NCBI GenBank assembly: GCA_001782475.1
Contig: MFOT01000024.1
Coordinates: 42,578-106,577, forward strand
DNA length: 64,000 nt
Reading direction: 5' to 3'
DNA from: Candidatus Levybacteria bacterium RIFCSPLOWO2_01_FULL_38_21
GTDB taxonomy: Bacteria; Patescibacteriota; Microgenomatia; Levybacterales; UBA12049
A program made the translations under genes and the position numbers. The notes under the pieces are model-generated. The model saw only the letters and a program-made list of their open reading frames with translations, did not search any database and was not told where the DNA came from. Of this stretch, positions 6,912 to 64,000 are shown in pieces (positions within the stretch are counted from its first letter, which is position 1; each line of letters starts with the position of its first letter).

Positions 6912-9900
6912 ATGAAGTTAAGCAAATTTTTGGCTGTCCCCGCAGTAACTTTTCTATTTTTTGTCTTCTTATCTGGCAGTGCCTATGCTTCTTTCTCTTA
7001 CTCATACGATTCCTCTCCGCCCTCCGCCGACCAGGTAGCTGATTCATTCTGCGCTGGCTCCATCCAGACTTGTTGGAACAGTTCGTCTGTTGGTGTAACA
7101 GATTGTGGAACTGCTTGTACCGGCGGTAACGCCTGGGAAAAGCATGTATATTCAGGCTGTTATTATGTAGCTTTTTTAGGTTATAAGGCATGGCTTCCAT
7201 TTGCATCCGCTACCTGCTCAACCGGGGATAAGTGTACGAGTAGTTGGCCTTATCTAAACGCTGGATATTGCGATTGCTCAGTCGGAGGCATATATAAAAC
7301 CTGCTGTGATACTACGACAGGAAGAGCTGATGGGGCTTGCGTGGCATATGCTGTTGATACCACAAATCCTCCATGGGAAGGTTATTGTCCTGCGGGAACA
7401 GCGACGGAGTTCTGTGGCTTCGGAGGCTATCCTGCCTGCGGAGATGCGGCTTGCGCAAAGTACGCCCCCCCTCCAGATTGTAATACTGGGGTTTCTTGTT
7501 CTGGAGCCTGCAGCGCGCCGGCAAATACCTGCTCTACAAATAATGGAACGCAAACAAGCTGTGTCTATACAGCCTACAGCGGAGGAGGATCCTGCACTCA
7601 AACAACTGCTCCCAACCAACAATGCACAGTTAATAATTGTTCTGCGGGATATACTTGCCAGAGTGGCATTTGTACGGCAGGACCGAATCCTCCTACTGCC
7701 GCAATCAACGGACCCACTTCCATTACACTTGGCCAATCAGGCAGCTTTACTGCAACCGCCAACCAAGACTCAACCAGTTCGCTTGCATCCGGAGAAATTT
7801 ATTGGTCGCCAACCGGTTCTCAATCCTGGACTCTTCTTAATCCCGTAGCTGCGCTTTCGGGCTCAACTGGGTCATTTTCCAGAACGTGGACTCCGACTGC
7901 TACCGGTACTTACTACGTAGTTGTCAACGCTTACAATGTAAATGGCCAACAATGCACAGGTAATCCTTTCGGGATTGATCCCGGCTGGGTTAATTGCGGA
8001 TCAAACGATGCTGTAACTGTCACAGTCACAACTGTAGCAGCAACCCCAACCCCAACTCCCACACCTGCCTCTTCATGCAATGCTGCGTGCATTGCAAGTG
8101 GTTATTATTATGGAATATGCCAAGGTGCATGCGGTGGAAACTATGATGGATCGCCTAGTCAATATGAATGTGCAAGTAATATTGGTGCACCTCTTTGCTG
8201 TTGTTCACGTGTGCCAGCCACTCCAACTCCAACCCCGACTGGCGCTCCAACTCCCACTCCAACTCGAGCTCCCTCAACATACGACATTTCTGGTACTGTT
8301 TGGGTAGATACCAATGGGAATGGGTTTAAGGACATATTAGAAGATGGATTCCAGAGCGCTCGCATAACCATAACCGGCGGTGCTTTTAGGAATACAGACA
8401 ACTCTGGATTTTACCTTTTTTCAAGTCTAGCTTCCGGAACATATACAATTACTCTTACTGTACCTTCTGGCTATATCTTAACCACTTCAAATCCTGTCAC
8501 CAGAACCCTCCCGAACAATGCCACAGCTAATTTTGGGATACAACCCCTATCAACCATCTCTGGAACTGTATTTGTGGACACTAATGGGAGTGGGGCTAAG
8601 GACACAGGAGAACCGGGATACAGCGGGGCTACCCTAACCGGACCCGGCGGTGAGACTGATACTACAGGCGCCAGTGGATCTTACGGTTTTCCAGGTCTAG
8701 CTTCCGGAACCTATACAATTACTCTTACTGTACCTTCTGGCTATATCTTAACCACTTCAAATCCTGTCACCAGAACCCTCCCGCCCGATGCCACAGCTAA
8801 TTTTGGGATAAGATTCAACAAGCCAGACCTGGTTGTCTCAAATCTTAGTGTCCAGTCGGTTGCCGCAGGCCCGATAACACCAAGAGATGGCAGTAGCTTT
8901 GATACCAATGGCGGCTCGGGCGCAAGTTGGTCAAATCCAACCTATGCTCAGACTTCCAATAGCCAGCGCGCCTCTGTTTCACTGGACGGTAATCCCAGTT
9001 CCCGTTATCTTAAGGCTCAAGGCTTTGGTTTTAACATTCTACCCGGTTCTACCATCAATGGTATTCTCGTTGAGGTAGAACGCAGGGCCGAAGAAGAAGG
9101 CTGGGGCGGCAATCCCAGAATAGTAGATGATGTCATCAGACTTGTCAAAGCCGATGGAACAATTGGCGGAAGTAACAGAGCAGGCAGTAGTTACTGGCCA
9201 GAATCGGATGCTTATACAAGCTATGGCTCAGGTACCTACCTGTGGGTCCTAACCTGGACACCGGCCGATATCAATAATTCCAATTTTGGGGTGGCAGTCT
9301 CGGCCAGGAATGAGGGTGATGACGCAATTGCATACATTGACCATATCCGTATCACGGTGTATTTAGCTTCCGAAGCAGGAGAGTCGTTAGAAGCAGTCTT
9401 TACCTTAAAAAATAACAGTTCTATTACCACGCCACCCGGGGTTAATTTTAGGATTGATCTTTGGCCGGACCGCACCAGCTCTCCCAATCTTGGAGAACTA
9501 AGTGATTGTACCCCGACCCCTTGTAAGATAGACCAAACAGAAATGGCCGCCAATGAACAGAGATCCGTGACTATACCTTTCACCGCTCCCTTAACCGCTG
9601 GAACAAAGACGGTCCAAATTTTGGCTGATTCGCCGGACGTCATTGACGAAATGGAGGAGTTAACTAATAATAGGATATCTAAAATCTACTTTGTTACTGC
9701 ACCCCCAACATACACAATTTCTGGAAATGTATTTGTAGACGCCGATAAAAATCGGCTCAAGAATGGAGGGGAGACAAACTACACAGGCGCAATCACTATT
9801 TCCTCAACAGAAGGAACTGTATCTGCTCCCTCTGGTACTGGGGTTTACACTGTAGACGGTTTAATAGAAGGAACATATACAATTTCTTACACAGATCTTC

Positions 9901-10904
9901 CTTCTGGATATCAACTAACATATCCTCTAAACGGTCCCCCGCCCTCTTTTACGGTTACGGTTGGGGCATCTTGTTCTGTTGGCGGTTCAAACAGCGCAAC
10001 TTGCGGTGGAGGAAGCATTTCAAATCTTAACTTTGGCATAACCAATTCAAATCCATGGATCCAGTCAACCTGTACAGATATAAGATTTGATACTGGCTTT
10101 GATGACCCCATACCAATAACCGCTGATCCTGTTCTCTGTGGCGGGCCAAATGCATCTATCAATGCATCTATTTCAGTCGTTTGCACAACTCCGGGAATCA
10201 TTATGTCTGGAGACAGCTCATATTCCTTTGGTCAAGGACAGGCCTCATCTACGAACTGGGTCGTGGGGGGAACTACCTATCCGGAAGTTTTTGCTCCCAC
10301 AAGAGGAGGCGGCTTTGCAACTTCTTACGCATATGTCTTATCTGTTATAAAACAAGCAGGTCTAACACCAACGGATCTTTCAACCGTATGTACCCTTTCA
10401 AACTGCACTTTACCCGCAGGATTTTCTCACGGTCTTTACAAGGCAAATTCTGATCTCTACCTTAACGCTTTTACATTCCTAGCCTCATCAAATTATGTAA
10501 TCTTGGTCAACGGAAATCTCTACATTCGCGGTAAAATCCTCGTACCAAATGGTTCAACCGCAACCTTTATTGTCTCTGGCAACATTTATGTAGACCAAAC
10601 CGTAGGAGAAGCAGTTATTTCATCAACAACCCCTGATATTGAAGGCTTCTATAGTACGGATAAGAGTTTTATAATCCAGGGTACAAACGACTGCATGGTG
10701 GGAGCGGATTTACGACTAAATGTTGCCGGCACAATTGTAGTTAATGCAGGACTTACGGGCGGATCATTCCAAAACTTAAGAGATCTTTGCGGAGGAAATC
10801 TTTCCTGTCCTGTATTTTCGATATCAGAAAGGCCAGATTTTATTCTAAATGCTCCGGAGGTAATAAAAAGACAGAATGCAATTTATCAGGAAGTAGCACC
10901 CTAG
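6912..10904 (+). CDS. giant secreted/cell-surface protein (1330 aa) with Cys-rich N-domain, PT linkers and tandem Cna-B/SdrD-B-like repeats
   Basis: Signal peptide MKLSKFLAVPAVTFLFFVFLSGSAYAS; about 40 Cys in the first 400 aa; linkers ATPTPTPTPASS and PATPTPTPTGAPTPTPT; two near-identical repeats ...SGTYTITLTVPSGYILTTSNPVTRTLP..ATANFGI... (DNA 8404-8530 and 8665-8800). Confidence 0.6.
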   Translation: MKLSKFLAVPAVTFLFFVFLSGSAYASFSYSYDSSPPSADQVADSFCAGSIQTCWNSSSVGVTDCGTACTGGNAWEKHVYSGCYYVAFLGYKAWLPFASATCSTGDKCTSSWPYLNAGYCDCSVGGIYKTCCDTTTGRADGACVAYAVDTTNPPWEGYCPAGTATEFCGFGGYPACGDAACAKYAPPPDCNTGVSCSGACSAPANTCSTNNGTQTSCVYTAYSGGGSCTQTTAPNQQCTVNNCSAGYTCQSGICTAGPNPPTAAINGPTSITLGQSGSFTATANQDSTSSLASGEIYWSPTGSQSWTLLNPVAALSGSTGSFSRTWTPTATGTYYVVVNAYNVNGQQCTGNPFGIDPGWVNCGSNDAVTVTVTTVAATPTPTPTPASSCNAACIASGYYYGICQGACGGNYDGSPSQYECASNIGAPLCCCSRVPATPTPTPTGAPTPTPTRAPSTYDISGTVWVDTNGNGFKDILEDGFQSARITITGGAFRNTDNSGFYLFSSLASGTYTITLTVPSGYILTTSNPVTRTLPNNATANFGIQPLSTISGTVFVDTNGSGAKDTGEPGYSGATLTGPGGETDTTGASGSYGFPGLASGTYTITLTVPSGYILTTSNPVTRTLPPDATANFGIRFNKPDLVVSNLSVQSVAAGPITPRDGSSFDTNGGSGASWSNPTYAQTSNSQRASVSLDGNPSSRYLKAQGFGFNILPGSTINGILVEVERRAEEEGWGGNPRIVDDVIRLVKADGTIGGSNRAGSSYWPESDAYTSYGSGTYLWVLTWTPADINNSNFGVAVSARNEGDDAIAYIDHIRITVYLASEAGESLEAVFTLKNNSSITTPPGVNFRIDLWPDRTSSPNLGELSDCTPTPCKIDQTEMAANEQRSVTIPFTAPLTAGTKTVQILADSPDVIDEMEELTNNRISKIYFVTAPPTYTISGNVFVDADKNRLKNGGETNYTGAITISSTEGTVSAPSGTGVYTVDGLIEGTYTISYTDLPSGYQLTYPLNGPPPSFTVTVGASCSVGGSNSATCGGGSISNLNFGITNSNPWIQSTCTDIRFDTGFDDPIPITADPVLCGGPNASINASISVVCTTPGIIMSGDSSYSFGQGQASSTNWVVGGTTYPEVFAPTRGGGFATSYAYVLSVIKQAGLTPTDLSTVCTLSNCTLPAGFSHGLYKANSDLYLNAFTFLASSNYVILVNGNLYIRGKILVPNGSTATFIVSGNIYVDQTVGEAVISSTTPDIEGFYSTDKSFIIQGTNDCMVGADLRLNVAGTIVVNAGLTGGSFQNLRDLCGGNLSCPVFSISERPDFILNAPEVIKRQNAIYQEVAP

Positions 10905-10916
10905 CGCAAAGCGCTA

Positions 10917-10952
10917 AGGAAATTCTAAACACTAAATCCGAAATCCTAAACA
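10917..10952. repeat. left terminal inverted repeat of a MITE-like element (AAATCCTAAA-type arm)
   Basis: ttctaaacactaaatccgaaatcctaaac is the reverse complement of the arm at 55592-55622 and is inverted relative to 11322-11385. Confidence 0.5.
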
Positions 10953-10959
10953 AATAATA

Positions 10960-11319
10960 ATGGACCAGATCACAAATAATAAACGGTATGACCTAGAAGA
11001 ACGATGCTTAAATTTTGCCAAGAGGGCCAATAAGTATATAAACCATTTACCCAAGACTATTACTAATATCGAAAATGGAAAACAATTAGCAAGATCCGTA
11101 GGATCTGTTGGAGCAAATTATATAGAAGCAAATGAAGCGCTAAGCAAAAAAGATTTCATAATGAGAGCTAAAATTTGCAAGAAGGAAGCTAAAGAAAGCA
11201 GATTTTGGTTTACTCTTTCAGAACCTTTGCAAGGAGAACAAAAAGAAAAAGATCTGCTCATTCAGGAAGCAACAGAACTTATGAAAATCTTTGGATCGAT
11301 TCTTGAAAAATCTAAATAG
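10960..11319 (+). CDS. four helix bundle protein (TIGR02436-like; 23S rRNA intervening-sequence protein family)
   Basis: RSVGSVGANYIEANEALSKKDFIMRAKICKKEAKESRFWFTL is the hallmark of this family. Confidence 0.7.
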   Translation: MDQITNNKRYDLEERCLNFAKRANKYINHLPKTITNIENGKQLARSVGSVGANYIEANEALSKKDFIMRAKICKKEAKESRFWFTLSEPLQGEQKEKDLLIQEATELMKIFGSILEKSK

Positions 11320-11321
11320 TT

Positions 11322-11385
11322 CTGGGATTTGAGGATTTAGAATTTAAATATTGTTTAGTATTTAGATATTAGAATTTAGGATTTA
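11322..11385. repeat. right terminal inverted repeat of the MITE-like element
   Basis: gggatttgaggatttagaatttaaatattgtttagtatttagatattagaatttaggattta matches arms at 55497-55530 and 55590-55622. Confidence 0.5.
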
Positions 11386-12408
11386 ATTAAGATAAGTGAT
11401 TTCTTCCTCTAGTTCCAGCTTGTATTTTTCTTTTATAATCTCTTTTATTTCTCCAATTAAACTTCTTACATCTTCCGATGTCGCGTTGCCAAGATTGACA
11501 ATAAAATTAGGATGCTTTTCGGAGACCATTGCGCCTCCTTGTCTTTTCCCTTTTAAACCTGCTACTGCTAAAAGTTTAGCTGTTGGCAAAATAGGAAAAG
11601 GATCATCTTTTATCGAACTACTTAGTCCTCCTAATAATTTTTGGGGAACTTTTTCGATTGGGATGTTTTTGAAAATACTTCCTATATTTGGGTATTCTAG
11701 AGGATGTCTTTCTTTCCGATAATTGATCTTTTTCTCGATCTGTCTTTTAATTAAATCTTTATTGCCCCCTTGAAGTTTTAATTCCACTGAGATTATAATT
11801 TCACTTTTCCCCTCCCCGTCTTTAAAAATACTTGATCTATACCCAAAATTGCACTCTGAGTTTTTTCTTTTTCTAACCTCGTAGGTTGCGAGATTACCAA
11901 CCTCGTAGGTTGAGAGACTTTCGACTTCGTAAGCACTATCTTTTATTTCCCCTTTAAATGCTCCAGCATTCCCCCTGACAGCGCCGCCGATTGTGCCAGG
12001 AAGACCTCCTGCCCACTCAAGTCCGGATAGACAATTTTGAACACAAAAATTGAGCAAATCCTCCAATAAAACACCGGCGCCGGCTAAAATCTTAATATTG
12101 CCAGCCTCGCCAACCTCGCAGGTTTCGTGCGTGCAACCTGCGAGGTTACAATAACCCAATATCCTGATCTCTTTTATTTTATTGTGAATAACAAGTCCAT
12201 TAAATCCTTTATCGCTTACTAAGACATTCGTCCCCCCACCGAAGATAAACATATCCTGCGAAGGTGATTTTTTTGAGATTTTTTTCCATTGTTTAAGGCC
12301 TTCGATTAACTCCTCAACGCTTGAAACCTTAAGAAGATACTTGGCTCTGCCCCCGATTTTGAAATTGTTGAGGTCTTTTAAAGAGATATCTTTTTGAATC
12401 GAAACCAT
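11383..12408 (-). CDS. murB: UDP-N-acetylenolpyruvoylglucosamine reductase
   Basis: FAD-binding N-terminus (GGRAKYLL...FGGGTNVLV) and MurB C-terminal domain; contains in-frame palindromic insertions (YEVESLSTYEVGNLATYEV; CTHETCEVGEAG). Confidence 0.75.
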   Translation of the reverse strand: MVSIQKDISLKDLNNFKIGGRAKYLLKVSSVEELIEGLKQWKKISKKSPSQDMFIFGGGTNVLVSDKGFNGLVIHNKIKEIRILGYCNLAGCTHETCEVGEAGNIKILAGAGVLLEDLLNFCVQNCLSGLEWAGGLPGTIGGAVRGNAGAFKGEIKDSAYEVESLSTYEVGNLATYEVRKRKNSECNFGYRSSIFKDGEGKSEIIISVELKLQGGNKDLIKRQIEKKINYRKERHPLEYPNIGSIFKNIPIEKVPQKLLGGLSSSIKDDPFPILPTAKLLAVAGLKGKRQGGAMVSEKHPNFIVNLGNATSEDVRSLIGEIKEIIKEKYKLELEEEITYLN

Positions 12409-12411
12409 AAG

Positions 12412-13530
12412 CTACCTACTCGGGGCGGGTTTTAGAGCTGCTTTTGTGTCAATTGTCTTCCCATTTCTCCAAACTGTAATATTTATGCTGTCTTCTACTT
12501 TTTTTCTTGAAATTATGCCTGCAACGTCTGTTTTGCCCTCAATCCTTTTGCCGTCGATTTTTATAATTATATCTCCTTTCTCAATTCCTGCCTTTTCTGC
12601 CGAGGAACCAGCGATAACTTCCTGAACAAAAGCGCCCTCCGGGACATTATTTAAAAGAGCAACATCCCGATCTATAATCTTATAGGCAATTCCCAAATAC
12701 GGCCTGTTAAACTGGCCGCTTTCATTAAAATTTTTAAGCGAATCTTTAACAACGTTTATCGGAAGCGCAAATCCGATATTTTGTCCTCCCCTTGCAATTG
12801 CGGTGTTTATTCCGATAACTTGCGAAGAGGAGTTCAAAAGAGGGCCTCCGCTGTTTCCGGGATTAATTGCCGCAGATGTTTGTATAACATTATCAAGCCG
12901 CTCAACATACCCTTCAAATTCCGATCCTGCTGTAATCCCCCGGCCTAACCCAGATATTACTCCTGTTGTTACAGTATTTCTAAATTCACCAAGCGCTGTT
13001 CCGATTGCAATTGCAAACTGACCTACTACAAGTTTTGATGAATCGCCCATTTCAACAGGCTTTAATTTCTGAGGCGGATTTTGGGAGGGGTCGATTTTAA
13101 GAATTGCAATATCATTTAGCGGGTCTCTGTAGATTTTTTGAACATCGTATTTTTTATCGGCTGCGGTTATTATCTGATAAGAAACTCCGCTGTCTCCCAC
13201 GACATGTTTGTTTGTTACAATAAACCCGTCTTTTGAAACCATAAACCCAGATCCAATATTTTGGGACTGCGGTTGCGCGGGAGATTCAAAGATTGAAAAA
13301 GGTCCAAAAGAAAACTGACGGGAGGACGAGGAAACTTCAACAACTGTTACAACCGAGGGTCCAACTTTTTTAACAGCATCTATTACTATAGATTCTTCTG
13401 TAACAATTTTTACTTTTTCTTGCGAAGGCGCTTCGGGATTTTTAAGAGCCTGAGGCAGATAATTTGCTACAGCGCTTAAAATGAATAAAACAGCAACTAA
13501 AATAGCGGCAAGAATTATTAACCTTCTCAT
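12412..13530 (-). CDS. htrA: periplasmic serine protease HtrA/DegP (trypsin-like plus PDZ)
   Basis: GSGFMVSKDGFIVTNKHVV carries the catalytic His; INPGNSGGPLLN carries the catalytic Ser; a PDZ domain sits at the C-terminus; N-terminal TM anchor. Confidence 0.8.
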   Translation of the reverse strand: MRRLIILAAILVAVLFILSAVANYLPQALKNPEAPSQEKVKIVTEESIVIDAVKKVGPSVVTVVEVSSSSRQFSFGPFSIFESPAQPQSQNIGSGFMVSKDGFIVTNKHVVGDSGVSYQIITAADKKYDVQKIYRDPLNDIAILKIDPSQNPPQKLKPVEMGDSSKLVVGQFAIAIGTALGEFRNTVTTGVISGLGRGITAGSEFEGYVERLDNVIQTSAAINPGNSGGPLLNSSSQVIGINTAIARGGQNIGFALPINVVKDSLKNFNESGQFNRPYLGIAYKIIDRDVALLNNVPEGAFVQEVIAGSSAEKAGIEKGDIIIKIDGKRIEGKTDVAGIISRKKVEDSINITVWRNGKTIDTKAALKPAPSR

Positions 13531-17443: not shown

Positions 17444-18379
17444 CTATCCGATTTTAAATTCAATCACGTCTCCGTCTTTTACTATATAATCCCTTCCTTC
17501 AAGCCTTATTTTCCCTTCCTCTTTTGCATTTTTCCACCCGCCAACAGATAATAAATCCCCAACTAAAATTACTTCTGCTTTAATAAAGTGTTTGGCAAAA
17601 TCTGTGTGGACTAAATTCGCCGCATCGATAATGTTTGCGCCGTTTTTAATTGGCCATGCTTGAGTCTGTTTCCCGCCAACAATCGTAAAGAAAGTTATTA
17701 AATTTAATAATTTGTAAGATTCTACAATAACTTGATCTAATCCTGAACTTGCTTGCCCTGAGTTTGTCGAATGGGCCGAAGGATCAACACCTAGCTCCCT
17801 AAGATAGCCCTCCTGTTCTGATTCTGAAAGATCTGAAAGTTCTGCTTCTAGTTTTGCGCAGATTTTAATGAATGAAAACGGAAGGCTGAAATCCTGCCTG
17901 CCGGCAGGCATGGCTTTTTTTAAATCTTTTTCGGAAACATTTAATACATAAATCGTTGGCTTTTTTATGCTTGCTAATTCAAGTTCTTGATTAACAGTTT
18001 CAACATCGATTATTGGGTCAATTTTCTGATAAGGATGCAAAACACTCGGGTTTTCAAAGACCCTTACAATATGTAAAATCGCATCTGCTTCTCTTATATG
18101 AGCTAAGAACTGATTTCCTAAACCTTCGCCGGCATGCGCCCCTTTGATCAGACCTGCTATATCTATAAATTTTATTGAAGCAGGTACTTTTTTATTAATA
18201 TTTGCGACTGCGGCAATTTTATCAAGTCTTTCGTCAGGCACCTCAACTACACCCACATTTGGTTCAATTGTCGTATACGGATATTCACCAACTTGTGCGA
18301 TCTGTCTTTTTAAAAGCGCATTAAAAAGTGTGGACTTCCCACTATTTGGCAGGCCAACGATCCCGATTGATAAGGACAT
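17444..18379 (-). CDS. ychF: ribosome-binding ATPase YchF (Obg-like)
   Basis: GIVGLPNSGKSTLFNAL ... YPYTTIEPNVGVV ... FIDIAGLIKGAHAGEGLGNQFLAHIREADAILHIVR; TGS-like C-terminus. Confidence 0.85.
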   Translation of the reverse strand: MSLSIGIVGLPNSGKSTLFNALLKRQIAQVGEYPYTTIEPNVGVVEVPDERLDKIAAVANINKKVPASIKFIDIAGLIKGAHAGEGLGNQFLAHIREADAILHIVRVFENPSVLHPYQKIDPIIDVETVNQELELASIKKPTIYVLNVSEKDLKKAMPAGRQDFSLPFSFIKICAKLEAELSDLSESEQEGYLRELGVDPSAHSTNSGQASSGLDQVIVESYKLLNLITFFTIVGGKQTQAWPIKNGANIIDAANLVHTDFAKHFIKAEVILVGDLLSVGGWKNAKEEGKIRLEGRDYIVKDGDVIEFKIG

Positions 18380-20456: not shown

Positions 20457-21394
20457 AACATGTTTTAGTAACAGGCGGCGCGGGTTTTATAGGCGCAAGT
20501 TTAGTTCGAAAGCTTCTTGAAAATGGCGATAAGGTTGTAGTAATTGATAATCTAATTACTTCAAACGGGGAAAGTATTAAACCGCTACTTAAAAATCCCA
20601 ATTTCAAATTTATCAAACGCGACATAATAAAACCTTTGCCTTCATCAATCATCAATCATCAATCATCAATTGGGCATATCTTCCATCTTGCCTGTCCGAC
20701 CGGCGTTCCGAATCTCACAAAACTTGCCAGAGAAATGCTACTTACCTCCGCGATCGGAACAATGAATGTTTTAGAACTTGCCAGAAAACACAAGGCAAAG
20801 TTTATATTCACAAGTTCTTCTGAAGTTTATGGTGATCCCAAAGTTTTTCCGCAGAACGAAAACTATACAGGCAATGTCAGCTCTGTAGGTATTAGAAGTC
20901 CATATGAAGAAGGAAAAAGATTTGCCGAAAGTCTGATTATGACTTACGTTCGAAAATATAATTTGGATGCAAGAATTGTCCGGGTGTTTAATACCTACGG
21001 ACCCCTGATGTCTATTAACGATACGCGCGTTATTCCAAAATTCTTAAAACAAATTAGTAAAAACCAGCCTCTGACAGTTCAAGGAGATGGCAGGCAAACA
21101 AGAACATTTTGTTACGTTGACGATCTAATAAAAGGTTTAGTTCTTCTTATGGACAAGGGGGGGGAGGGCGAAGTTTATAATCTCGGGAGTAACAAAGAAA
21201 TAAGTATAAATACCCTGGCTGGGCTCATGATAAAAATTACAAAATCTAAAAGTAAAACAATAAATATTAGTCGTCCGTCTCATGACCACAACCGCCGTCT
21301 CCCCGACCTGAGAAAAGCAAACAAACTTAATTGGTACACTAAGGTAGGCCTTGATGAAGGTTTAGAAAGGACCGTACGATGGTTTGGGTTTTAG
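20453..21394 (+). CDS. NAD-dependent epimerase/dehydratase (UDP-glucuronate decarboxylase/UXS-like)
   Basis: VLVTGGAGFIGASLVRKL ... PYEEGKRFAE (YxxxK). Contains an in-frame heptanucleotide tandem repeat encoding SSIINHQSSIG. Confidence 0.65.
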   Translation: MKHVLVTGGAGFIGASLVRKLLENGDKVVVIDNLITSNGESIKPLLKNPNFKFIKRDIIKPLPSSIINHQSSIGHIFHLACPTGVPNLTKLAREMLLTSAIGTMNVLELARKHKAKFIFTSSSEVYGDPKVFPQNENYTGNVSSVGIRSPYEEGKRFAESLIMTYVRKYNLDARIVRVFNTYGPLMSINDTRVIPKFLKQISKNQPLTVQGDGRQTRTFCYVDDLIKGLVLLMDKGGEGEVYNLGSNKEISINTLAGLMIKITKSKSKTINISRPSHDHNRRLPDLRKANKLNWYTKVGLDEGLERTVRWFGF

Positions 21395-32880: not shown

Positions 32881-34308
32881 CTACTTAATTCTTTCTACGC
32901 TCGTTGTTCCGTCTTCATTGTCCTGAATCTCATACCCTAATTTTTTAATCTTGTGCCTTACTTGATCTGCGAGATGATATCTTTTTTTCTTTCGCAATTC
33001 ATTTCTCTCCTCAACTAATTTTTGAATATTTTCCGGAATTTTTTCTTCCTCTTTTTTTATGTAATTTTTTGCATTTTCCAAATCAAGTCCCAAAACTTTA
33101 TCAAATTTAAAAAGGCTTTCTGCCTTAGCCCTCATTGGATAGTCTGATTTAACAAGGTCCCAAACTATGCTTAATGCCTGCGGGATATTTAAATCATCGT
33201 TAATCGCATTAAGAAATTTTTCTTCATATTCTGCGCATCCGATTTTTGGTGTGTCATAAGTTGAAACAATTTCTCTTAAATGATTTAAAGCAGTTTGAGC
33301 TCCCTTAAGTGCTTTAAATGTAAAATTCATTTTAGAACGATAGTGAATTGTTAGTGTGAGGTAGCGAAAGGAGAGGGGGTCGAATCCTTTTTTTTCAAGA
33401 TCAGAAATTGTGTAGATATTTCTCTTGGAACGAGACATTTTCTCTTCATTCACCAATAAATGCCCAGCGTGAACCCAGTAGTTTACAAATTTACTGCCGG
33501 TTGCAGCCTCGCTTTGTGCAATTTCATCCTCATGATGAGGAAAAATTAAATCCTCTCCGCCTGTATGGATATCGAAAGTATCACCTAGGTATTTGATGCT
33601 CATCGCAGAGCACTCAATATGCCAACCCGGAAAGCCAAGCCCCCAAGGGCTGTCCCATTTCATGAGCCTCTCTTTTTCTGCTTTTTTCCAGAGCGCAAAA
33701 TCAGCACTGTCTTTTTTATCAGTCTCAAGCGATACTCTAACTGCCTTTAAAAGATTGTCCATCTTCGAAAGAGTATTTCCCGAAAGCTTTCCATAGTTTT
33801 TAAACTTTTTAACATCAAAATAGACTGTTCCGTCAACCTCATATGCGAAGCCTTTTTTAAGAAGGACTTTGATAATTTCGATCATCTCCTTAATATTTTC
33901 GCTGGCCTTAGGATAGACAGTTGCAGGCAGAATATTTAATTTCTTTTCGTCCTCAAGATAAATTTTTGTAAAATGATCAGCAATCTCTTCGGGTGTTTTT
34001 TCCATCTTTATTGCTTCCTCTATTATCGGATCTATCTGTTCGACTTGTGGTGAGCCTGTCGAACCATGATGTCCTGTACCGATATTCCGCATATGTCCTA
34101 CATCGGTTATGTTCTTGATATATAAAACTCTATAACCGTTGTACATTAAAACCCGCCGCAAAAGATCCGAAGTGATATATGTTCTAAAGTTTCCTATATG
34201 AACTTCTCTATAAACCGTAGGTCCGCAGGTGTAAATACTAACCTTATCTTTATCAATTGGCTTAAACTCTTCAATTTTCCGGGAAAGTGTGTTATAAATT
34301 CTTAACAT
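32881..34308 (-). CDS. cysS: cysteine--tRNA ligase
   Basis: [17 protein letters not shown] (HIGH) and KMSRSKRN (KMSKS). Confidence 0.9.
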
Positions 34309-40141: not shown

Positions 40142-41089
40142 TTAAATCTTTTCCAATACTTTAATTATTTCTGTCAAAGATAGCTTCGTTGGCTTCATTT
40201 TTGGATTTTTGACAGAGCCGTTTAAAAGCATTTTCCGACCGATATGAAGAAACCAAGTTGCTTGAGGGTCCATTTTTTTTAATCTTTCATAAACTAACGT
40301 CAAATCTATATTCTTGTTGATTGTTGATTGTTGATTGTTGATTGTTGATAAAGGCTTTGCCTTTATCCTAACATACCCTTTTCGCGGGTCTTTGCGAACA
40401 ACAATTACATATCCCATTTTTTGAGACAATTTTATAACGGTGTCATTAATCGTTTCAAAACCTATTCCACGGCCGTACCGCGTTTTAAATTTTTTTCCTT
40501 TTTCTTTAATCTCCCGCTCTGCCCAAATTCTGTTTTCAAATTCGTGCAAAACCGCATCAAGGCATTGCATTACGAAACCTACATAATATTCATCCTGATC
40601 GGGCCTTTGAACCTTAAGTCCATCTAAAATGCCTACTAGAGAAAATTCATGGTAATCCGCCGTTGGGTCTTTCCAAAAAACTTCTTTAAAATGATCAACA
40701 TCCACAACTACCTTAACCATTCTTCCTACAGCTTCCATCCGGTCTTTTACTCCTTCTGAACTCTGAATTCTGAACTCTGAATTCTGAACTCGTTTGACGA
40801 AGTCAAACGTAAGGCTTGCCGCACACACATTTGTATCGGCTACTTGATGATGATCCAAAGGACCAAGGCCCGTATCTACATGAATAACCTCATCATCTCC
40901 TATTTTCTCTATCGCATTGCGCGGGGAGCCCCGCCCGGGCGGGGCGACCTCAGCGCTTTTTCCAATTCGTTCTCCGGCTGGAACGAATCGGACGACCGCA
41001 TCTTCCCATCCCGGTAAAAATCTTTTTATAAGCCAAACAGAAGTTATCGCATCCAAATCCGGCGAACTATGCCCAATTATAATTTTCAT
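40142..41089 (-). CDS. DHH-family phosphoesterase (NrnA-like)
   Basis: MKIIIGHSSPDLDAITS and HVDTGLGPLDHH motifs; contains three in-frame repeat insertions (heptad STINNQQSTINK, ctgaact repeats, GC-rich palindrome). Confidence 0.65.
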   Translation of the reverse strand: MKIIIGHSSPDLDAITSVWLIKRFLPGWEDAVVRFVPAGERIGKSAEVAPPGRGSPRNAIEKIGDDEVIHVDTGLGPLDHHQVADTNVCAASLTFDFVKRVQNSEFRIQSSEGVKDRMEAVGRMVKVVVDVDHFKEVFWKDPTADYHEFSLVGILDGLKVQRPDQDEYYVGFVMQCLDAVLHEFENRIWAEREIKEKGKKFKTRYGRGIGFETINDTVIKLSQKMGYVIVVRKDPRKGYVRIKAKPLSTINNQQSTINKNIDLTLVYERLKKMDPQATWFLHIGRKMLLNGSVKNPKMKPTKLSLTEIIKVLEKI

Positions 41090-41194: not shown

Positions 41195-41452
41195 ATGAAT
41201 CCTAAAACTGCGGATTTAGATCCAAAACTTAAAGAGACCTATGAGCGGGTAATGGGGACAGTAACTCCTACAGCATCAAATATGCCTCAAGCATCAACTG
41301 ATACTCCAAAACCTCAAACTCAAGTGGTTACGGCTAAGAACAGGGGAAGACTTTCTCCCATTCTTCTTGCGATTGTAATTGTTTTGTTTTTTATAATCTA
41401 TACTTTTGTCTGGACAATAGTTTTTAAACTAAAACTCCCCTTCTTACCCTAA
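41195..41452 (+). CDS. hypothetical small membrane protein
   Basis: C-terminal TM helix ILLAIVIVLFFIIYTFVWTIVF. Confidence 0.3.
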   Translation: MNPKTADLDPKLKETYERVMGTVTPTASNMPQASTDTPKPQTQVVTAKNRGRLSPILLAIVIVLFFIIYTFVWTIVFKLKLPFLP

Positions 41453-42742
41453 TCGTTTAATCGCTTGATCCACAGAAATAATCTCTGTCTTATCTTCATC
41501 TCTTTTTTTCCATTCCACTTGTCCTCCAGAGACTTTATCTGAGATTACAAGCCGAACGGGAATTCCGATTAAATCCGCATCCGCAAATTTCTCTCCAGCA
41601 CTCACATCTTCTCTATCATCATAAAGAACCTCAACTCCTGTTTTCACAAGCTTATCGTACACCTCGGAGGTGGCCGACTCGCCCGGCGAAGCCTTGGCGA
41701 AGCGAGGATGGACTCCTCCGAGGTGGATTAAATGGACCTGATAGGGCGCAACAGATTTTGGCCAAACAATCCCTTTTTTATCGTTGTGAACTTCAGCAAT
41801 TGCTCCCATTGTTCTTGATATTCCTATCCCATAACAACCCATAACAACATATTTTTCTTTTCCGCTTTTATCTTTAAAAGTAAGTCCGAATGCTTTGGAA
41901 AATTTGTCTTTAAGAGGAAAAATATTTCCTACCTCGATTGTCTTTACTTTTTTCAAAGGTCCATGGCCAAGATCACATTCCTTGCCTTCCTTAACTTTGG
42001 TGATTTCTGAATTTTGCGAAAAATCTCCGCTGGGACAATAAATAATCTCATCTTCTCCGTTCCCACAGATAACCTGAAACTCATGGGAAAATTTGGAAAA
42101 TGTCCCGCCTGAAGCAAGTGTTTCTATAGCATTAAGCCCCAATCTTGAAAAAGTTTTTTTATAGACCTTTTTCATCAGCTCATAATAATCCACTAGATCT
42201 TTTTCGCTTTGGTGGAATGAATAAAGATCTTTCATAAGAAATTCTCTTCCTCTTAAAAGTCCTGCCTTCGATCTTGCCTCATCCCGAAATTTATTCTGAA
42301 TTTGATAAAGTTTTAACGGAAGATCTCTGTATGAATTCGCAAAGTTTTTTACCAGAGGCACTAAGACCTCTTCATGAGTAGGACCTAAGGCATACTCAAA
42401 ATCATATCTGCTTTTAACTTTAAAAAGCGCGTCAAAAGAATCCCACCTTCCGGTTTTTTCCCAATTTGCTTTATTTTGAAAGGAAACTAATAGAAGTTCC
42501 TGCGCTCCTGTATTATCCATCTCATCCCGTATAATATTTGAGATTTTATTTAATACCCTAAGTCCTAAAGGCAGAAAATTATAAACTCCGGCAACTTCTT
42601 TTCTTATAAATCCTGCCTGAATTAACAATCGTGCATTTACCGAAGATTCATCTTTGGGGGATTCTTTTATTGTTTTACCAAAAAGCTTTGAATATAGCAT
42701 AGAATATCCTGAGTTTACCGAAGGATAAAACGAGTATAGCAT
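41444..42742 (-). CDS. proS: proline--tRNA ligase
   Basis: Class II aaRS motifs (GPTHEEVLVPL..., FRDE, GCYGIGISR); contains an in-frame GC-rich repeat insertion (GGVHPRFAKASPGESATSEV). Confidence 0.85.
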   Translation of the reverse strand: MLYSFYPSVNSGYSMLYSKLFGKTIKESPKDESSVNARLLIQAGFIRKEVAGVYNFLPLGLRVLNKISNIIRDEMDNTGAQELLLVSFQNKANWEKTGRWDSFDALFKVKSRYDFEYALGPTHEEVLVPLVKNFANSYRDLPLKLYQIQNKFRDEARSKAGLLRGREFLMKDLYSFHQSEKDLVDYYELMKKVYKKTFSRLGLNAIETLASGGTFSKFSHEFQVICGNGEDEIIYCPSGDFSQNSEITKVKEGKECDLGHGPLKKVKTIEVGNIFPLKDKFSKAFGLTFKDKSGKEKYVVMGCYGIGISRTMGAIAEVHNDKKGIVWPKSVAPYQVHLIHLGGVHPRFAKASPGESATSEVYDKLVKTGVEVLYDDREDVSAGEKFADADLIGIPVRLVISDKVSGGQVEWKKRDEDKTEIISVDQAIKRLG

Positions 42743-48465: not shown

Positions 48466-49350
48466 TTACTTTTTACTTCTCGCCCTGAGCGAAGCCGAAG
48501 GGTTGACTTTTGTTTTTGGCCTTCGGTCTTTAACTTTTGACACCGCTGAACTTTTACTCTTTATCTCTTTCTTTTCTTCTTTATTTTTTAATTTCTCGCC
48601 CTGAGCTTGTCGAATGGGTTCTTTTTCATTTTTTATTTTATTCCGCCCCTCAATCCATGCATCTATTATATAACTTGTTATAAGTTTTATCGATCCTGTC
48701 GCATCATCGTTTGCCGGAATTGGATAATCAATAATTTCGGGGTTTGCGTTTGTATCAACGATTGCGACTGTTGTAACGCCCATTTTTCTTGCCTCATCAA
48801 TTACCAAGTCTTCAAGATGAGAGTCTATTACAAATACTGCATCCGGAATTTTTTTAAGATCTGCGATTCCTCCGTATAATAATGCGAGTTTTTGCCTTTC
48901 CTTTTCCCAGAGCCCTATCTCTTTCTTAGTATATTTTGATCTTTCTTCCTCACTTCTAAGTTTTTCGGCAAGATCTTTCAATTTTTTAAAGTTCTTTGCA
49001 ACCTCGGAAAAATTAGTAAGCGTTCCGCCTACCCATCTTTCTGTTACATAAAAAATTTGATTTTCTATTTTACCTGAAGATTGCTGTTTTGCCTTTTTAA
49101 CTTCTTCCTCCACAACCGACCGGGCTTGTCTTTTTGTTCCAACAACAATTAAGCTTCCGTTTTTTTGCGAAAGATTGAAAATAAATTTTCCAGCTTCTTC
49201 AAGACCTGCTTTGGTTTTGGTAAGATCAACTATATGAATATTATCGCGGGCTTCAAAGATGTAGTCTCGGGCTTTTGGATTTCCGCGCGTTACCTGATGT
49301 CCAAAATGGCATCCTGCCTCAAGAAGTTCTTCAAGCGTAATTTCCCTCAT
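48466..49350 (-). CDS. rpsB: 30S ribosomal protein S2
   Basis: MREITLEELLEAGCHFGHQVTRGNPKARDYIF. The ORF-track start at 49488 adds a 46-aa hydrophobic extension that is probably not translated. The C-terminal tail carries two GC-rich repeat insertions. Confidence 0.85.
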   Translation of the reverse strand: MREITLEELLEAGCHFGHQVTRGNPKARDYIFEARDNIHIVDLTKTKAGLEEAGKFIFNLSQKNGSLIVVGTKRQARSVVEEEVKKAKQQSSGKIENQIFYVTERWVGGTLTNFSEVAKNFKKLKDLAEKLRSEEERSKYTKKEIGLWEKERQKLALLYGGIADLKKIPDAVFVIDSHLEDLVIDEARKMGVTTVAIVDTNANPEIIDYPIPANDDATGSIKLITSYIIDAWIEGRNKIKNEKEPIRQAQGEKLKNKEEKKEIKSKSSAVSKVKDRRPKTKVNPSASLRARSKK

Positions 49351-49524
49351 AATCCTTAACCTCCGTCCTAAAAGTTTTAAATCAGGATTATTCTGAATAG
49401 GACGTGTATAATAGTAGCAATAATACAAAAAATTAGCAGAAAAAACAACAAGTAAAATTATACAAATATTGACAACCAAAAAAAACATAACTACGATAGA
49501 TATTGCTGGTTAACGAAGTCTAAA

Positions 49525-50849: not shown

Positions 50850-52217
50850 TTATGGAACTGGAAAATTACTACAAAACTCCTTTACTTGCCTATTAATTTC
50901 CAAAAGTTTTTTGTTCCTTACAATCTTTCTTTTAAACTCCTTCCAAAACTCGCTTCTTTTTTCTCTTGTGGTGAGCTTGCCGAATCCATTTTGTAATCGA
51001 CCCCCCTTTATTTCTTCAATTACCTGATTGATCCATTCAGCAATTTTTACCATCTCTTTTTCCTTCATGCCTCTTGTTGTCAGAACTGGAGTTCCTAAAC
51101 GAATTCCCGATGGGTAAAACGGCGGCATTGGATCATTTGGTACGGCATTTTTGTTAACAACTATTCCCGCAACCTCCAGAGCAAAAGCTGCCAAAGCGCC
51201 GTTTACCTTCCTATTCGAAAGATCAATCAACAAAAGATGATTATCCGTTCCTCCGCTTACAAGATTAAATTTAAATTTCCTGAGCTCTTCAGCGAGGACT
51301 TTTGCATTTTTGACCACCTGCTGACTATATTTTTTAAATGACGGGAAACCTGCTTCTAAAAGACTAACTGCAATTGCCGCGGTTTGATTATCATGCGGCC
51401 CTCCCTGTAATCCCGGAAAGACTGCTTTATCAATTTTTTCTCCCAACTGTGAATCTTTTTTTAGCCCCTCACCAGTCACCATGATGATAGCTCCCCTTGG
51501 ACCCCTAAGAGTCTTATGTGTCGTCGTCATAACAATATGGGCATAAGGAACTGGTGAAGGGTGAGCGCCAGCGACTATTAATCCTGCAATATGGGAAATA
51601 TCGGCTAAAAGATATGCTCCTACTCTGTCTGAAATCTTTCCAAATCTTTTAAAATCTATAATTCTAGGATATGCGGTTGCTCCACAGACAATTATTTTTG
51701 GTTTTTCTTTTAAGGCAAGTTTTTCAACTTCATCATAATCGATTAATCCGTTTTTATCCAAATGATATGGCACCACTTTATAGTATTTTCCCGAAATTGA
51801 AACAGGCGATCCGTGGGTTAAATGACCTCCAAAGGCAAGCGAGAGTCCCATTATTTTATCTTTAAAAGGTTTAAGAAGCGCAAGATAAACTGCAGTATTT
51901 GCAGGAGATCCGGAATAAGGCTGGACATTAACATAAGAAACTCCAAACAATTTTTTCGCCCGCTCCTCTGCCAAGATTTCTACACTATCTATAATGGTAT
52001 TCCCCTGATAATATCTTTTCTTAGGATACCCTTCCGAATATTTATTTGTTAGAACACTTCCCAATGCCTCCATTACAGCCTTTGAAGTATAATTTTCAGA
52101 GGGAATCATCTCCAAAACCTCTTCCTGCCTTTTTTCTTCCTCTTTTATTAAATTGTAAATCTCAGGATCTGTCTGTTTTAATTTTCTCATAATATTATTT
52201 CCGAGCGTTTTGAACAT
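50850..52217 (-). CDS. glyA: serine hydroxymethyltransferase
   Basis: LTNKYSEGYPKKRYYQGN and the TTHKTLRGPRG PLP-lysine region. Confidence 0.9.
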   Translation of the reverse strand: MFKTLGNNIMRKLKQTDPEIYNLIKEEEKRQEEVLEMIPSENYTSKAVMEALGSVLTNKYSEGYPKKRYYQGNTIIDSVEILAEERAKKLFGVSYVNVQPYSGSPANTAVYLALLKPFKDKIMGLSLAFGGHLTHGSPVSISGKYYKVVPYHLDKNGLIDYDEVEKLALKEKPKIIVCGATAYPRIIDFKRFGKISDRVGAYLLADISHIAGLIVAGAHPSPVPYAHIVMTTTHKTLRGPRGAIIMVTGEGLKKDSQLGEKIDKAVFPGLQGGPHDNQTAAIAVSLLEAGFPSFKKYSQQVVKNAKVLAEELRKFKFNLVSGGTDNHLLLIDLSNRKVNGALAAFALEVAGIVVNKNAVPNDPMPPFYPSGIRLGTPVLTTRGMKEKEMVKIAEWINQVIEEIKGGRLQNGFGKLTTREKRSEFWKEFKRKIVRNKKLLEINRQVKEFCSNFPVP

Positions 52218-61520: not shown

Positions 61521-61585
61521 TGGGTCGGGATGGAATCGAACCATCTACCTGTCGCCTCAGGCGACCGTTCTGCCCATTGAAACAG
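61521..61585 (-). tRNA. tRNA-like gene, 3' portion (positions ~8-73, encoded CCA follows at 61518-61520); lacks the 5' acceptor strand; aberrant anticodon arm
   Basis: Minus-strand reading: CTGTTTCAATGGGCAGAACGGTCGCCTGAGGCGACAGGTAGATGGTTCGATTCCATCCCGACCCA + CCA. The T-arm GATGG-TTCGATT-CCATC is canonical. The anticodon arm is a perfect GTCGCC-TGA-GGCGAC hairpin, giving a 3- or 5-nt loop. Confidence 0.5.
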
Positions 61586-61657
61586 TGGGCACGGATAGAA
61601 TCGAACTATCCACCTCTTCTTTATCAGAGAAGCGTTCTACCAATGAACTACGTGCCC
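61586..61657 (-). tRNA. tRNA-Ile (anticodon GAU)
   Basis: GGGCACG-TA-GTTC-ATTGGTA-GAAC-G-CTTCT-CTGATAA-AGAAG-AGGTG-GATAG-TTCGATT-CTATC-CGTGCCC-A forms a canonical cloverleaf; CCA is not encoded. Confidence 0.8.
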
Positions 61658-61892: not shown

Positions 61893-61947
61893 TGAACCAT
61901 CTAGCTGTCGCCTCAGGCGACCGTTCTAGCCGGTGAACTACCGACCC
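61893..61947 (-). tRNA. tRNA-like gene, 5' portion (positions 1-56), truncated within the T-loop
   Basis: GGGTCGG-TA-GTTC-ACCGGCTA-GAAC-GGTCGCCTGAGGCGACAG-CTA-GATGGTTC, then diverges (AAAATG...). Positions 21-56 are duplicated at 61533-61568 with one mismatch. Confidence 0.5.
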
Positions 61948-62445: not shown

Positions 62446-62578
62446 AAATCTTAATAAGACCTATGATCCCAGCAATTATTCCGCCAAAAATAGCTATATT
62501 TTTGAGTTTTTCAGTAAAACTTGGCTGTCCCTCTTTCATAATTTTTAATTCTAAGCTTTGAATTCTAAATTCTATTAG

Positions 62579-62651
62579 AGGCGCGAAGGGGACTTGCACC
62601 CCTGAATGGCTGTTCTGCAGACAGCTGTGTTAGCTACTTCACCACCGCGCC
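62579..62651 (-). tRNA. tRNA-Cys (anticodon GCA)
   Basis: GGCGCGG-TG-GTGAAGTAGCTAACAC-A-GCTGT-CTGCAGA-ACAGC-CATTC-AGGGG-TGCAAGT-CCCCT-TCGCGCC-T. U73 discriminator and G7-U66 are typical of tRNA-Cys; CCA is not encoded. Confidence 0.7.
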
Positions 62652-63283: not shown

Positions 63284-64000
63284 ATTTCGATAACTTGGGT
63301 TGTTTCGAGTTCCCACTAGACAAGCGGTTTTCCCGCATCTAGCGAGCCCCTGTTCATCTGTGATTTTAACTGTCGAATCTTCTTATATCCTTCATTACTT
63401 TTATGTTCTCCATTCTTTACCATTAAAGCGATTCGCCGAAAGAGTAAATAATTTTTAAGCTTTTTGCTATGAAGCTGGTTCTTATCAAAAAAAGGTATTA
63501 TTTTTTCATGTAAATCTTTTTGAGCAGTTACGCCAAATCTGTAACAATTTTTTTGATTTGCACGATATTCCTTTTGATAATATACTCCACCGCAATCAAA
63601 AAACTTCTGAACTTTCTTGAGTAATGGAAGTTCGTCTTCCCGAAGTTTTATGAAAAAGTGCATTTCTACTCGAGATTTATGAGTTCTGTTTGGAACTCTA
63701 GTCGCTACATAAAAACACCCTTCTCCATCAGTTAATCCTACGATATAATCATCAGATAAACGATTAGGTTTTTCCCTTCCCCCGCTAAGCGGGGTACTAT
63801 GGATCTGCTGACTTCTCTTCTTCAAGTTCATCTACCTTGAGAATAGATAAACAATTACCCAATTGTCAAGAAGAGATCTCCTAAGGTCACTTACCAAACA
63901 ATTCCTGGCATCCTAATTAGACTTTTTATATGTTCTTCCCTTAGACACACCTGATTAAGGTCGAACGTCTATTTTTTATTAGGCTGTCATTTGCTTCAGG
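63284..64000 (-). mobile_element. 16S rRNA intron (probably group I) inserted near E. coli position ~1400, continuing beyond the window
   Basis: The expected TGTGTACA following CCGCCCGTCA is replaced by more than 700 nt of non-rRNA sequence that contains a LAGLIDADG ORF. Confidence 0.6.
63316..63831 (-). CDS. LAGLIDADG homing endonuclease encoded within the 16S intron
   Basis: DYIVGLTDGEGCFYV is a single LAGLIDADG motif in a 171-aa protein (homodimer type). Confidence 0.75.
   Translation of the reverse strand: MNLKKRSQQIHSTPLSGGREKPNRLSDDYIVGLTDGEGCFYVATRVPNRTHKSRVEMHFFIKLREDELPLLKKVQKFFDCGGVYYQKEYRANQKNCYRFGVTAQKDLHEKIIPFFDKNQLHSKKLKNYLLFRRIALMVKNGEHKSNEGYKKIRQLKSQMNRGSLDAGKPLV

Follow-up and report, generated by a model that had tools for sequence, protein, structure and literature searches.

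We analysed a stretch of 64,000 nucleotides (nt; the window) from Candidatus Levybacteria bacterium RIFCSPLOWO2_01_FULL_38_21 (contig MFOT01000024.1, positions 42,578 to 106,577), which carries on its minus strand an intact open reading frame (ORF) for murB (11383-12408), extended in frame by short palindromic repeats. The 341-residue product is MurB (UDP-N-acetylenolpyruvoylglucosamine reductase): it displays the Pfam domains FAD_binding_4 and MurB_C with the conserved core motifs, a sequence search of the PDB returned the MurB structure 3tx1 with E = 1.8e-35, and Foldseek matched the AlphaFold2 (AF2) model, which has a mean predicted local distance difference test score (pLDDT) of 77.5, to 3tx1 and 1hsk with probability 1.0. 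An alignment of 30 orthologs contains 73 invariant columns. The closest MurB relatives belong to Microgenomates, with source labels Levybacteria, Roizmanbacteria or Patescibacteria, and Microgenomates orthologs are typically 308-318 residues long, as compared to 341 here. The GC content of the genome is 39%.

Four copies of the 13-mer AACCTCGNAGGTT (AACCTCG[T/C]AGGTT) are present in the 64-kb window, all of them within murB, against a chance expectation of 0.01; none of 100 shuffles reached this number. When up to three mismatches were allowed, nothing above chance was found elsewhere in the window. The shorter core ACCTNNNAGGT occurs five times where 0.58 occurrences are expected, four times in murB and once in an ORF resembling prolyl-tRNA synthetase (ProRS). 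Each 13-mer is an imperfect palindrome, with arms of 5 + 5 nt around an asymmetric 3-nt centre, and the four copies form two pairs, located at positions designated site C and site B.

At site C, unit 1 (AACCTCGTAGGTT on the plus strand, 11899-11911) reads A ACC TAC GAG GTT on the coding strand, corresponding to T167-Y-E-V170, and occupies the position of the first arm of a hairpin present in orthologs (see below). The 15-mer around it, CAACCTCGTAGGTTG (11898-11912), is identical to one arm of an intergenic hairpin on the metagenome contig L114. It is followed by the spacer GCGAGATTACC (11888-11898), which codes for GGT AAT CTC GC(A) = G171-N-L-A174 at the position of the variable four-codon loop of the orthologs' hairpin, and by unit 2, again AACCTCGTAGGTT on the plus strand (11875-11887), coding for T175-Y-E-V178. 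Unit 2 is a direct copy of unit 1 (TYEV...TYEV) at a position where five orthologs have the complementary arm; in the window, arm 2 has been replaced by a copy of arm 1. The resulting direct repeat, with 24 nt from start to start, lies within a 24-nt (eight-codon) periodicity, of which a degenerate third period, GACTTCGTAAGCA (11923-11935; 8/13 matches; A159-Y-E-V162), is a native strand that aligns with the orthologs and lies outside the insertion.

At site B, the pair forms a hairpin (12112-12147) composed of AACCTCGCAGGTT, the loop TCGTGCGTGC and AACCTGCGAGGTT, and codes for N88-LAGCTHETCE-V99. Its arms are AACCTCGCAGGTT on the plus strand (12112-12124) and the same 13-mer on the minus strand (12135-12147), which, as a perfect inverted repeat, pair over 13 bp around a 10-nt loop; the predicted RNA folding energy is -27.6 kcal/mol (z = -3.65). 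The pair is accompanied by a tail (12100-12111) coding for GGC GAG GCT GGC = G100-E-A-G103, which includes the 9-nt repeat GCCAACCTC. When compared with insertion-free orthologs, the whole insertion comprises about 19 codons (G85-G103; 12100-12156) and coincides with a gap in PDB entry 3tx1. A scan of murB against Rfam matched no family. A preliminary description of this DNA had reported two 13-nt copies 24 nt apart at 11875-11887 and 11899-11911, which the pattern count confirmed, and a second pair at 12113-12147, which exists but begins at 12112. It had also termed the 13-nt units palindromes; they are imperfect ones, and the true perfect inverted repeat is the 12112/12135 pair.

We surveyed about 185 MurB orthologs and aligned sets of 30 and of 121 sequences. 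Most orthologs lack both the segment at site B, which adds about 19 residues (GYCNLAGCTHETCEVGEAG, G85-G103), and that at site C, which adds about 6 residues within STYEVGNLATYEV (S166-V178), and solved MurB structures have gaps at both positions. In the AF2 model, residues 88-102 of site B have pLDDT values below 50 and lie between strands 81-85 and 104-110, and site C lies at the tip of a long hairpin whose two strands are 159-170 and 173-182, with pLDDT values of about 75-83. The segments are therefore lineage-specific in-frame insertions in an otherwise conserved enzyme, as the preliminary description had proposed, and are located in a low-confidence surface loop (site B) and at a beta-hairpin tip (site C). 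One of the peptides it quoted as extra, YEVESLS, is native and aligns with the orthologs; the extra residues are the roughly 6 at site C and 19 at site B. No ortholog was found that has a peptide segment but no palindrome, since those without the palindrome also lack the peptide segments.

Sites B and C are two of four insertion hot spots in MurB, the others lying after residues ~49 and ~200. In orthologs, these four loops hold many unrelated inserts, among them microsatellites of 8-nt units, (GAGTCAAA)n or (GAGAGTCA)n, whose translation across three frames gives ESQRVKES; LPAGRQG, encoded by the 20-nt palindrome CCTGCCTGCCGGCAGGCAGG; and FHLSGG, encoded by CCACCTNNNAGGTGG. At site C in the murB gene of P0048 (contig L136, 4952-4981; P numbers denote MurB sequences and L numbers contigs or assemblies), a perfect 30-nt AT-rich palindrome, TTGTAGTGATGTATTGATACATCACTACAA (CSDVLIHHYN), is found. 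It is unrelated to the repeats described here, yet occupies the same loop that has the AACCT hairpin in sister lineages.

The DNA of nine MurB orthologs, in addition to the near-identical L003, was compared at site C. Six carriers have ACC T[G/A]C GAG GTT followed by 12 nt, and in five of these ACC TCG CAG GTT (TSQV) comes next. In L004, L137 and L139, ACC TGC GAG GTT, 12 nt and ACC TCG CAG GTT create a perfect 13-bp stem, for which the L004 sequence gives a folding energy of -25.3 kcal/mol (z = -6.5); in L135 and L001, the TAC variant causes a single mismatch in the stem. The carrier MurBs, including that of the window, share 55-76% amino acid and 65-80% nucleotide identity. Among 115 columns in which the six carriers have an invariant degenerate residue, the same codon is used by all six in only 12 (10%), and three of these 12 are the ACC, GAG and GTT of arm 1. 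Likewise, none of the five TSQV carriers departs from TCG and CAG in arm 2, and the four loop codons vary even in the residue encoded. Codon preference is not the reason for this constancy, and codon bias was rejected as its cause, because the arm codons are GC-ending in a genome of 39% GC.

In L135, the lowest base pair of the stem has changed from A-T to G-C by two synonymous substitutions, and one copy in L114 has changed likewise. Across ten hairpin copies, with stems of 13-15 bp and loops of 8-12 nt, 93.6% of the stem cells are paired, and five stem pairs have changes in both partners. For a structure read from these same sequences, the covariation score is 0.197, which none of 500 shuffles reaches, as compared to 0.103 in shuffles. 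In a neighbour-joining tree of MurB core columns, the carriers fall into two non-sister groups, one comprising the window, P0001 and P0002, the other P0035, P0048/P0050 and, by similarity, P0122 and P0126. Arm sequences do not differ between these two clades, while the neighbours of the clades use different codons there, and P0123 (78% identical to P0126) and P0127, close relatives of carriers, have no hairpin. A profile of 51-56 residues around site C returned 24 candidates and one uninformative MurB fragment only.

Copies of the family are also found away from site C. The site-B cassette of the window, ACC TGC GAG GTT GGC GAG GCT GGC, matches the site-C insert of L004 at 21/24 nt; the two are the same DNA in different MurB loops, with the order of the arms reversed. 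Among the matches listed in a scan of metagenome DNA with the pattern AACCTNNNAGGTT-N8-14-AACCTNNNAGGTT, L114, L132 and five multi-copy contigs (see below) were informative. L114 is syntenic with the window (CtpB-like protease, 72% identity; MurB, 55% identity; an IVP-family gene; a giant surface protein), and its murB carries the arm AACCTCGCAGGTT. It displays two intergenic hairpins, one at 11664-11701 (CAACCTACGAGGTTG, 8 nt, CAACCTCGTAGGTTG) with a perfect 15-bp stem and one at 12831-12866 (GACCTACGAGGTT, 10 nt, AACCTCGTAGGTC) with a perfect 13-bp stem, both situated between toxin-antitoxin cassettes. In its 13 kb, the core ACCTNNNAGGT occurs nine times against 0.15 expected. In L132, AACCTGCGAGGTT, 8 nt and AACCTCGCAGGTT lie in frame (STCEVNATTSQV) in a gene for a double-zinc-ribbon and phosphoribosyltransferase (ComF-like) protein; this protein has no sequence match in the PDB, and its in-frame hairpin is a putative insertion. 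L031, L089, L097, L134 and L059, with taxonomy not assigned, have two or three copies each, mostly intergenic, among the matches listed. A scan of viral contigs found no copies, and a 12-residue peptide profile of TCEVGEARTSQV and its variants, designed for in-frame copies in any protein, gave nothing usable under an E-value ceiling of 10.

Two other explanations were discarded. The same inserts are present in the independent assemblies L003, L001/L002/L006, L137 and L139, which argues against a sequencing or assembly artefact, and a motif of the DNA-uptake-sequence kind would be far commoner in the window.

An unbiased list of in-frame insertions and deletions between the window and related contigs revealed that most insertions of 7-12 residues are GC-rich (50-81% versus 39%), form hairpins and belong to recurrent families. 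The ychF gene (17444-18379, minus strand) has two clean in-frame insertions relative to its orthologs in L001 (about 82% identity; 88% over aligned columns) and L005 (75%; 79% over aligned columns). One is 21 nt long (GCCATGCCTGCCGGCAGGCAG, 17894-17914), codes for AMPAGRQ and contains the 16-nt palindrome TGCCTGCCGGCAGGCA ("PAGRQ"); the other is 24 nt long (GCCCATTCGACAAACTCAGGGCAA, 17753-17776) and codes for AHSTNSGQ. In L001, ychF has this second element at a different site, read as FHSTGSGQ. Further copies of the element, TTCGRCARRCTCASS, are located on the minus strand at 34049 in cysteinyl-tRNA synthetase (CysRS, 32881-34308), at 48600 in ribosomal protein S2 (48466-49488) and at 50970 in serine hydroxymethyltransferase (SHMT, 50850-52217). 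Across ychF and these three genes, all three frames are used, one of the readings being GFGKLTTR; TTCGRCARRCTCASS is a DNA-level repeat family inside housekeeping genes. Other species have the PAGRQ palindrome in MurB, where it occupies two sites, and in L139 it is intergenic.

For three families counted in the window, every copy was found inside an ORF. The window holds 11 GC-rich hairpins whose stems measure 7 bp or more, nine of them in ORFs, against about 2 in shuffles; the corresponding count of GC-rich 21-nt islands (98 versus about 68) is weakly informative. Neither the clean insertions in ychF nor the sites in murB are flanked by a direct duplication.

Further repeats were noted in the same region. 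The ProRS-like ORF (41444-42742, minus strand) has a GC-rich segment, RFAKASPGESATSEV (41656-41704), just upstream of the match to the anticodon-binding domain, which contains CACCTCGGAGGTG, the unit of intergenic CCACCTCGGAGGTGG repeats in L114. An ORF of the DHH family (40142-41089, minus strand) contains, inside its DHH domain, an 18-nt perfect palindrome of 100% GC, GCCCCGCCCGGGCGGGGC (APPGRG, 40928-40945), as well as the heptanucleotide tandem repeats TTGTTGA x5 and TCTGAAC x5 (40314-40349 and 40755-40791). Many 7-nt tandem repeats with 3-7 copies occur across the window, for example at 20642, 34898, 39073, 41099, 47011, 47285 and 54625, and the 8-nt (GAGTCAAA)n repeats of MurB orthologs are analogous to these. 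Identical 15-nt palindromes, GTCGCCTCAGGCGAC, at 61551-61565 and 61907-61921 bracket the region of tRNA-Ile (61585-61657, minus strand); tRNA-Cys lies at 62578-62651 on the same strand. At the end of the window, an ORF for a LAGLIDADG homing endonuclease (63316-63831, minus strand) overlaps a match to the Rfam group II intron D1-D4 (63773-63851, 38.2 bits), so that 63316-63851 looks like an intron-like insertion.

In the neighbourhood of murB, 6912-10904 (plus strand) codes for a 1330-residue cysteine-rich surface-type protein with PT-repeats, which adjoins an IVP-family gene, the neighbour of murB; giant ORFs homologous to it flank murB in related contigs. The murB gene of L003 (10001-11023) is identical to the window allele over roughly its first two thirds and to the L001 allele over its last third, and is either a recombinant allele or a chimeric assembly. 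In L114, the region 9298-13287 is an array of toxin-antitoxin cassettes (HicB/HicA twice, PIN, AbiEii, DUF5615) with a repeated intergenic module between them, in which a ACCTACGAGGT hairpin is followed by CCACCTNNNAGGTGGGATTAG and then TATAGTCTTTGTCAAGSCCC. The layout is cassette-array-like; an assignment of the modules as integron attC sites was set aside, as no canonical R'/R'' cores are evident by inspection, which did not include a test with an attC model.

We consider it reasonably probable, at around 0.6, that the 13-mers of murB belong, as intragenic in-frame copies, to a dispersed family of short palindromic repeats of Microgenomates, a group of the candidate phyla radiation (CPR), that resembles repetitive extragenic palindromic sequences (REPs). 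The family unit would be AACCT-NNN-AGGTT with a centre containing G[T/C]AG, occurring singly, as direct pairs, or as inverted pairs that can fold into hairpins of 13-15 bp with loops of 8-12 nt, and copies reside in intergenic spacers and, now and then, inside genes. In an essential gene, selection would leave only those copies whose length is a multiple of three, that are free of stop codons and that have landed in a surface loop able to tolerate them. The inverted pair at site B, together with its 12-nt tail, lengthens a loop of the FAD-binding domain, and one pair at site C lengthens a beta-hairpin, with the enzyme core untouched. Spreading would proceed by a DNA-level mechanism, perhaps a hairpin-recognising single-strand transposition like that proposed for REPs, or recombination, and a hairpin-dependent constraint or correction could keep the arms constant. 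Both this mobility and an enzyme responsible for it are what we infer, whereas the sequences themselves show the insertions and where they lie, the hairpin, the constancy of the arms at nucleotide level and family copies elsewhere. In favour of the family we count the non-random motif confined to murB, the clustering of unrelated inserts at four loops, the constant arms of six carriers in two non-sister clades, the cassette common to site B and to site C of L004, the copies in L114 and L132, the covariation of the stem, the other in-frame families, the excess of GC-rich hairpins and the precedents among REPs and Rickettsia elements (PMC3733652, PMC10969869).

Several observations weigh against such a dispersed family. 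The site-C pair is found at the same codon position in six divergent lineages, which free transposition does not predict, and which requires either ancestry with repeated loss, recombination between alleles, or a strong target preference. When compared with the closest empty allele, that of P0123, 11 codons have been replaced by 22, which is not a clean insertion, and the site-C pair of the window is direct, with a 24-nt tandem periodicity that takes in native sequence. No target-site duplication is evident, and no transposase domain was detected in the 68 window ORFs of at least 90 residues that were scanned, a set without the 1330-residue ORF at 6912-10904 and from a mere part of the genome. 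There is no family copy outside murB in the 64-kb window and no further copy in the flanks of the other hairpin-bearing murB loci; the family is therefore low-copy and unevenly spread. Most of the metagenome matches listed are terminator-like hairpins or tandem arrays that have no relation to the family and come from many different phyla. Why six lineages share the same codons, why the arms are so constant and how the copies move is not explained by a dispersed REP-like family.

A purely local origin in murB would dispense with a mobile element and is possible, if unlikely. Tandem duplication or slippage of 24 nt, in combination with template-switch (quasi-palindrome) events at mutation-prone loop codons, would have shaped site C, and intragenic ectopic conversion would have transferred it to site B. 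The 24-nt periodicity with its third, native and degenerate period is what such a process would leave behind; the 12-nt duplication of L001 and the 27-nt tandem duplication of L114, and the 8-nt microsatellites that orthologs have in the same loops, point the same way, the unrelated perfect 30-nt palindrome of L136 looks as if made in situ, and the window copies are confined to murB. The same arms, however, occur in the perfect intergenic hairpins of L114 and in the ComF-like gene of L132, two non-sister clades share them unchanged, their neighbours having other codons at that position, and the other families are common to different genes in different frames. The shared position of the site-C pair could also be accounted for if Microgenomates, and perhaps CPR bacteria more widely, had a system, not described before, in which ultra-short hairpin cassettes of 13-40 nt enter housekeeping genes again and again at the same codons of surface loops, the arms being kept constant by dedicated sequence-specific machinery. 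The machinery may be a new site-preferring insertion or "homing" mechanism, or a hairpin-binding factor, and the site-C hairpin of non-sister lineages may then reflect recurrent targeted insertion instead of ancestry; we regard this as less likely again than a local origin.

A functional nucleic-acid hairpin in murB, serving as a signal for RNA processing, stability or pausing or as a factor binding site and kept by selection where present, would agree with arm synonymous sites that are conserved far above the gene background next to a freely varying loop, with the compensatory substitutions by which L135 and an L114 copy have G-C in place of A-T at the base of the stem, and with the same position in six lineages. 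Such a function is nevertheless improbable in our view: most orthologs, including close relatives of carriers, do without the hairpin, site C of the window is broken into a direct repeat, the same sequence is present at unrelated intergenic and genic places, and no Rfam family matches. We attach the lowest likelihood, very small, to adaptation at the protein level, in which the residues are selected (a longer beta-hairpin at site C; at site B a Cys-rich C-x4-C-x4-C loop that might bind a metal) and palindromy is incidental. The extended two-stranded hairpin that AF2 models at site C (pLDDT ~75-83), the recurring peptide pattern T-[YC]-E-V ... T-S-Q-V and the three cysteines in site B fit this proposal, which leaves unexplained, however, the invariant third codon positions with non-preferred GC-ending codons and the intergenic copies; moreover, the site-B loop has pLDDT values below 50, and related families are translated in all three frames. 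Each of these explanations covers part of the data, and none rules out a contribution from the others.

The genomes of CPR bacteria are tiny and densely packed with genes, and unexplained extra segments have often been noted in the proteins they encode. The present analysis traces a good share of such segments (in MurB, YchF, CysRS, ProRS, S2, SHMT and the single-strand DNA-binding protein SSB) to a few short hairpin-repeat families that are common to several genes and species and are read in whichever frame they landed. This offers a DNA-level source of protein length variation in the radiation, and it calls for caution: peptides such as PAGRQ, HSTGSGQ, TCEV...TSQV and ESQRVKES should not be taken as functional motifs or signals of homology. 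The repeats could also serve as markers for strain typing and for the detection of recombination or chimeric assemblies. In the literature searched, we found no published account of such repeats for CPR bacteria.

Quasi-palindrome or template-switch mutation is an established mechanism by which short inverted repeats arise, or become perfect, in place. It could account for the arms staying complementary and for the unrelated 30-nt palindrome of L136, but not for identical arms at unlinked places or in non-sister lineages. Miniature inverted-repeat transposable elements have terminal inverted repeats and a target-site duplication and measure 50-500 bp; the murB repeats, single hairpins of less than 40 nt without flanking duplication, do not belong to this class. 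The GC clusters of yeast mitochondria are likewise short GC-rich palindromes of several families in an AT-rich genome, vary in presence between strains and are occasionally found in frame in a protein gene (PMC4464245, PMC8811140); they are organellar and mostly intergenic, however, and the likeness is one of analogy only.

Rickettsia palindromic elements (RPEs) are palindromic repeats that lie in frame in genes (Ogata et al. 2000, 2002, as summarised in PMC10969869). The preliminary description had likened the murB repeats to them, and the behaviour is indeed similar, because the loop inserts are lineage-specific and in frame, family copies exist elsewhere and there are further in-frame palindrome families. 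As with RPEs, the repeats occupy fold-compatible positions in unrelated conserved genes, and several families coexist in one small, AT-rich, reduced genome: in-frame palindromes are found at murB sites B and C and in the ComF-like gene of L132, and those of sister families in the housekeeping genes ychF, CysRS, S2, SHMT and ProRS. The likeness does not extend to identity, which we reject. RPEs span about 100-150 bp and code for a conserved peptide 30-50 residues long, as compared to 13-nt units and 36-38-nt pairs (13 to about 37 nt overall) and inserts of 6-19 residues here, and both the sequences and the lineage are unrelated; in addition, neither a transposase nor a duplication was seen, and the window copies of the murB family are restricted to murB.

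Short repeats of the REP type are closer to the murB units than RPEs are. REPs (GTAG-/CGTC-tagged; Di Nocera et al. 2013) are stem-loops with 5-13-bp stems and 2-20-nt loops, have intragenic in-frame copies, form dimers in both orientations, differ in abundance among relatives and have been reported from Proteobacteria, Cyanobacteria, Chloroflexi and the Planctomycetes-Verrucomicrobia-Chlamydiae (PVC) group (PMC3733652). The murB family falls in the same size class, with 13-15-bp stems and 8-12-nt loops; its units are single, clustered, or joined into dimers, head-to-head or tail-to-tail, from which larger hairpins fold; its abundance is uneven between related genomes; its intergenic copies are placed, for instance in L114, downstream of genes or between them; and some copies within ORFs add residues in frame, at times twice per gene. 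Moreover, every unit contains G[T/C]AG (AACCTC-GTAG-GTT / -GCAG-), GYAG being an accepted variant of the REP tag. In REPs, however, the tag is terminal and unpaired, whereas GYAG lies inside the arm of the murB units and pairs with CT[A/G]C of the partner. The copy number in the window is very low (four, all in murB), and the window copies of the three counted families are all inside ORFs. REPs are mainly extragenic and dispersed; L114 has two perfect intergenic hairpins and one genic arm in its 13 kb. No REP-associated tyrosine transposase (RAYT, IS200/IS605-type) or other transposase was seen in the scanned window ORFs, and CPR bacteria, Microgenomates included, are not among the reported REP lineages. 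The phenomenon is thus already known in kind, from RPEs and from intragenic REPs, and what is new here is its extension to another lineage and to a very small element size.

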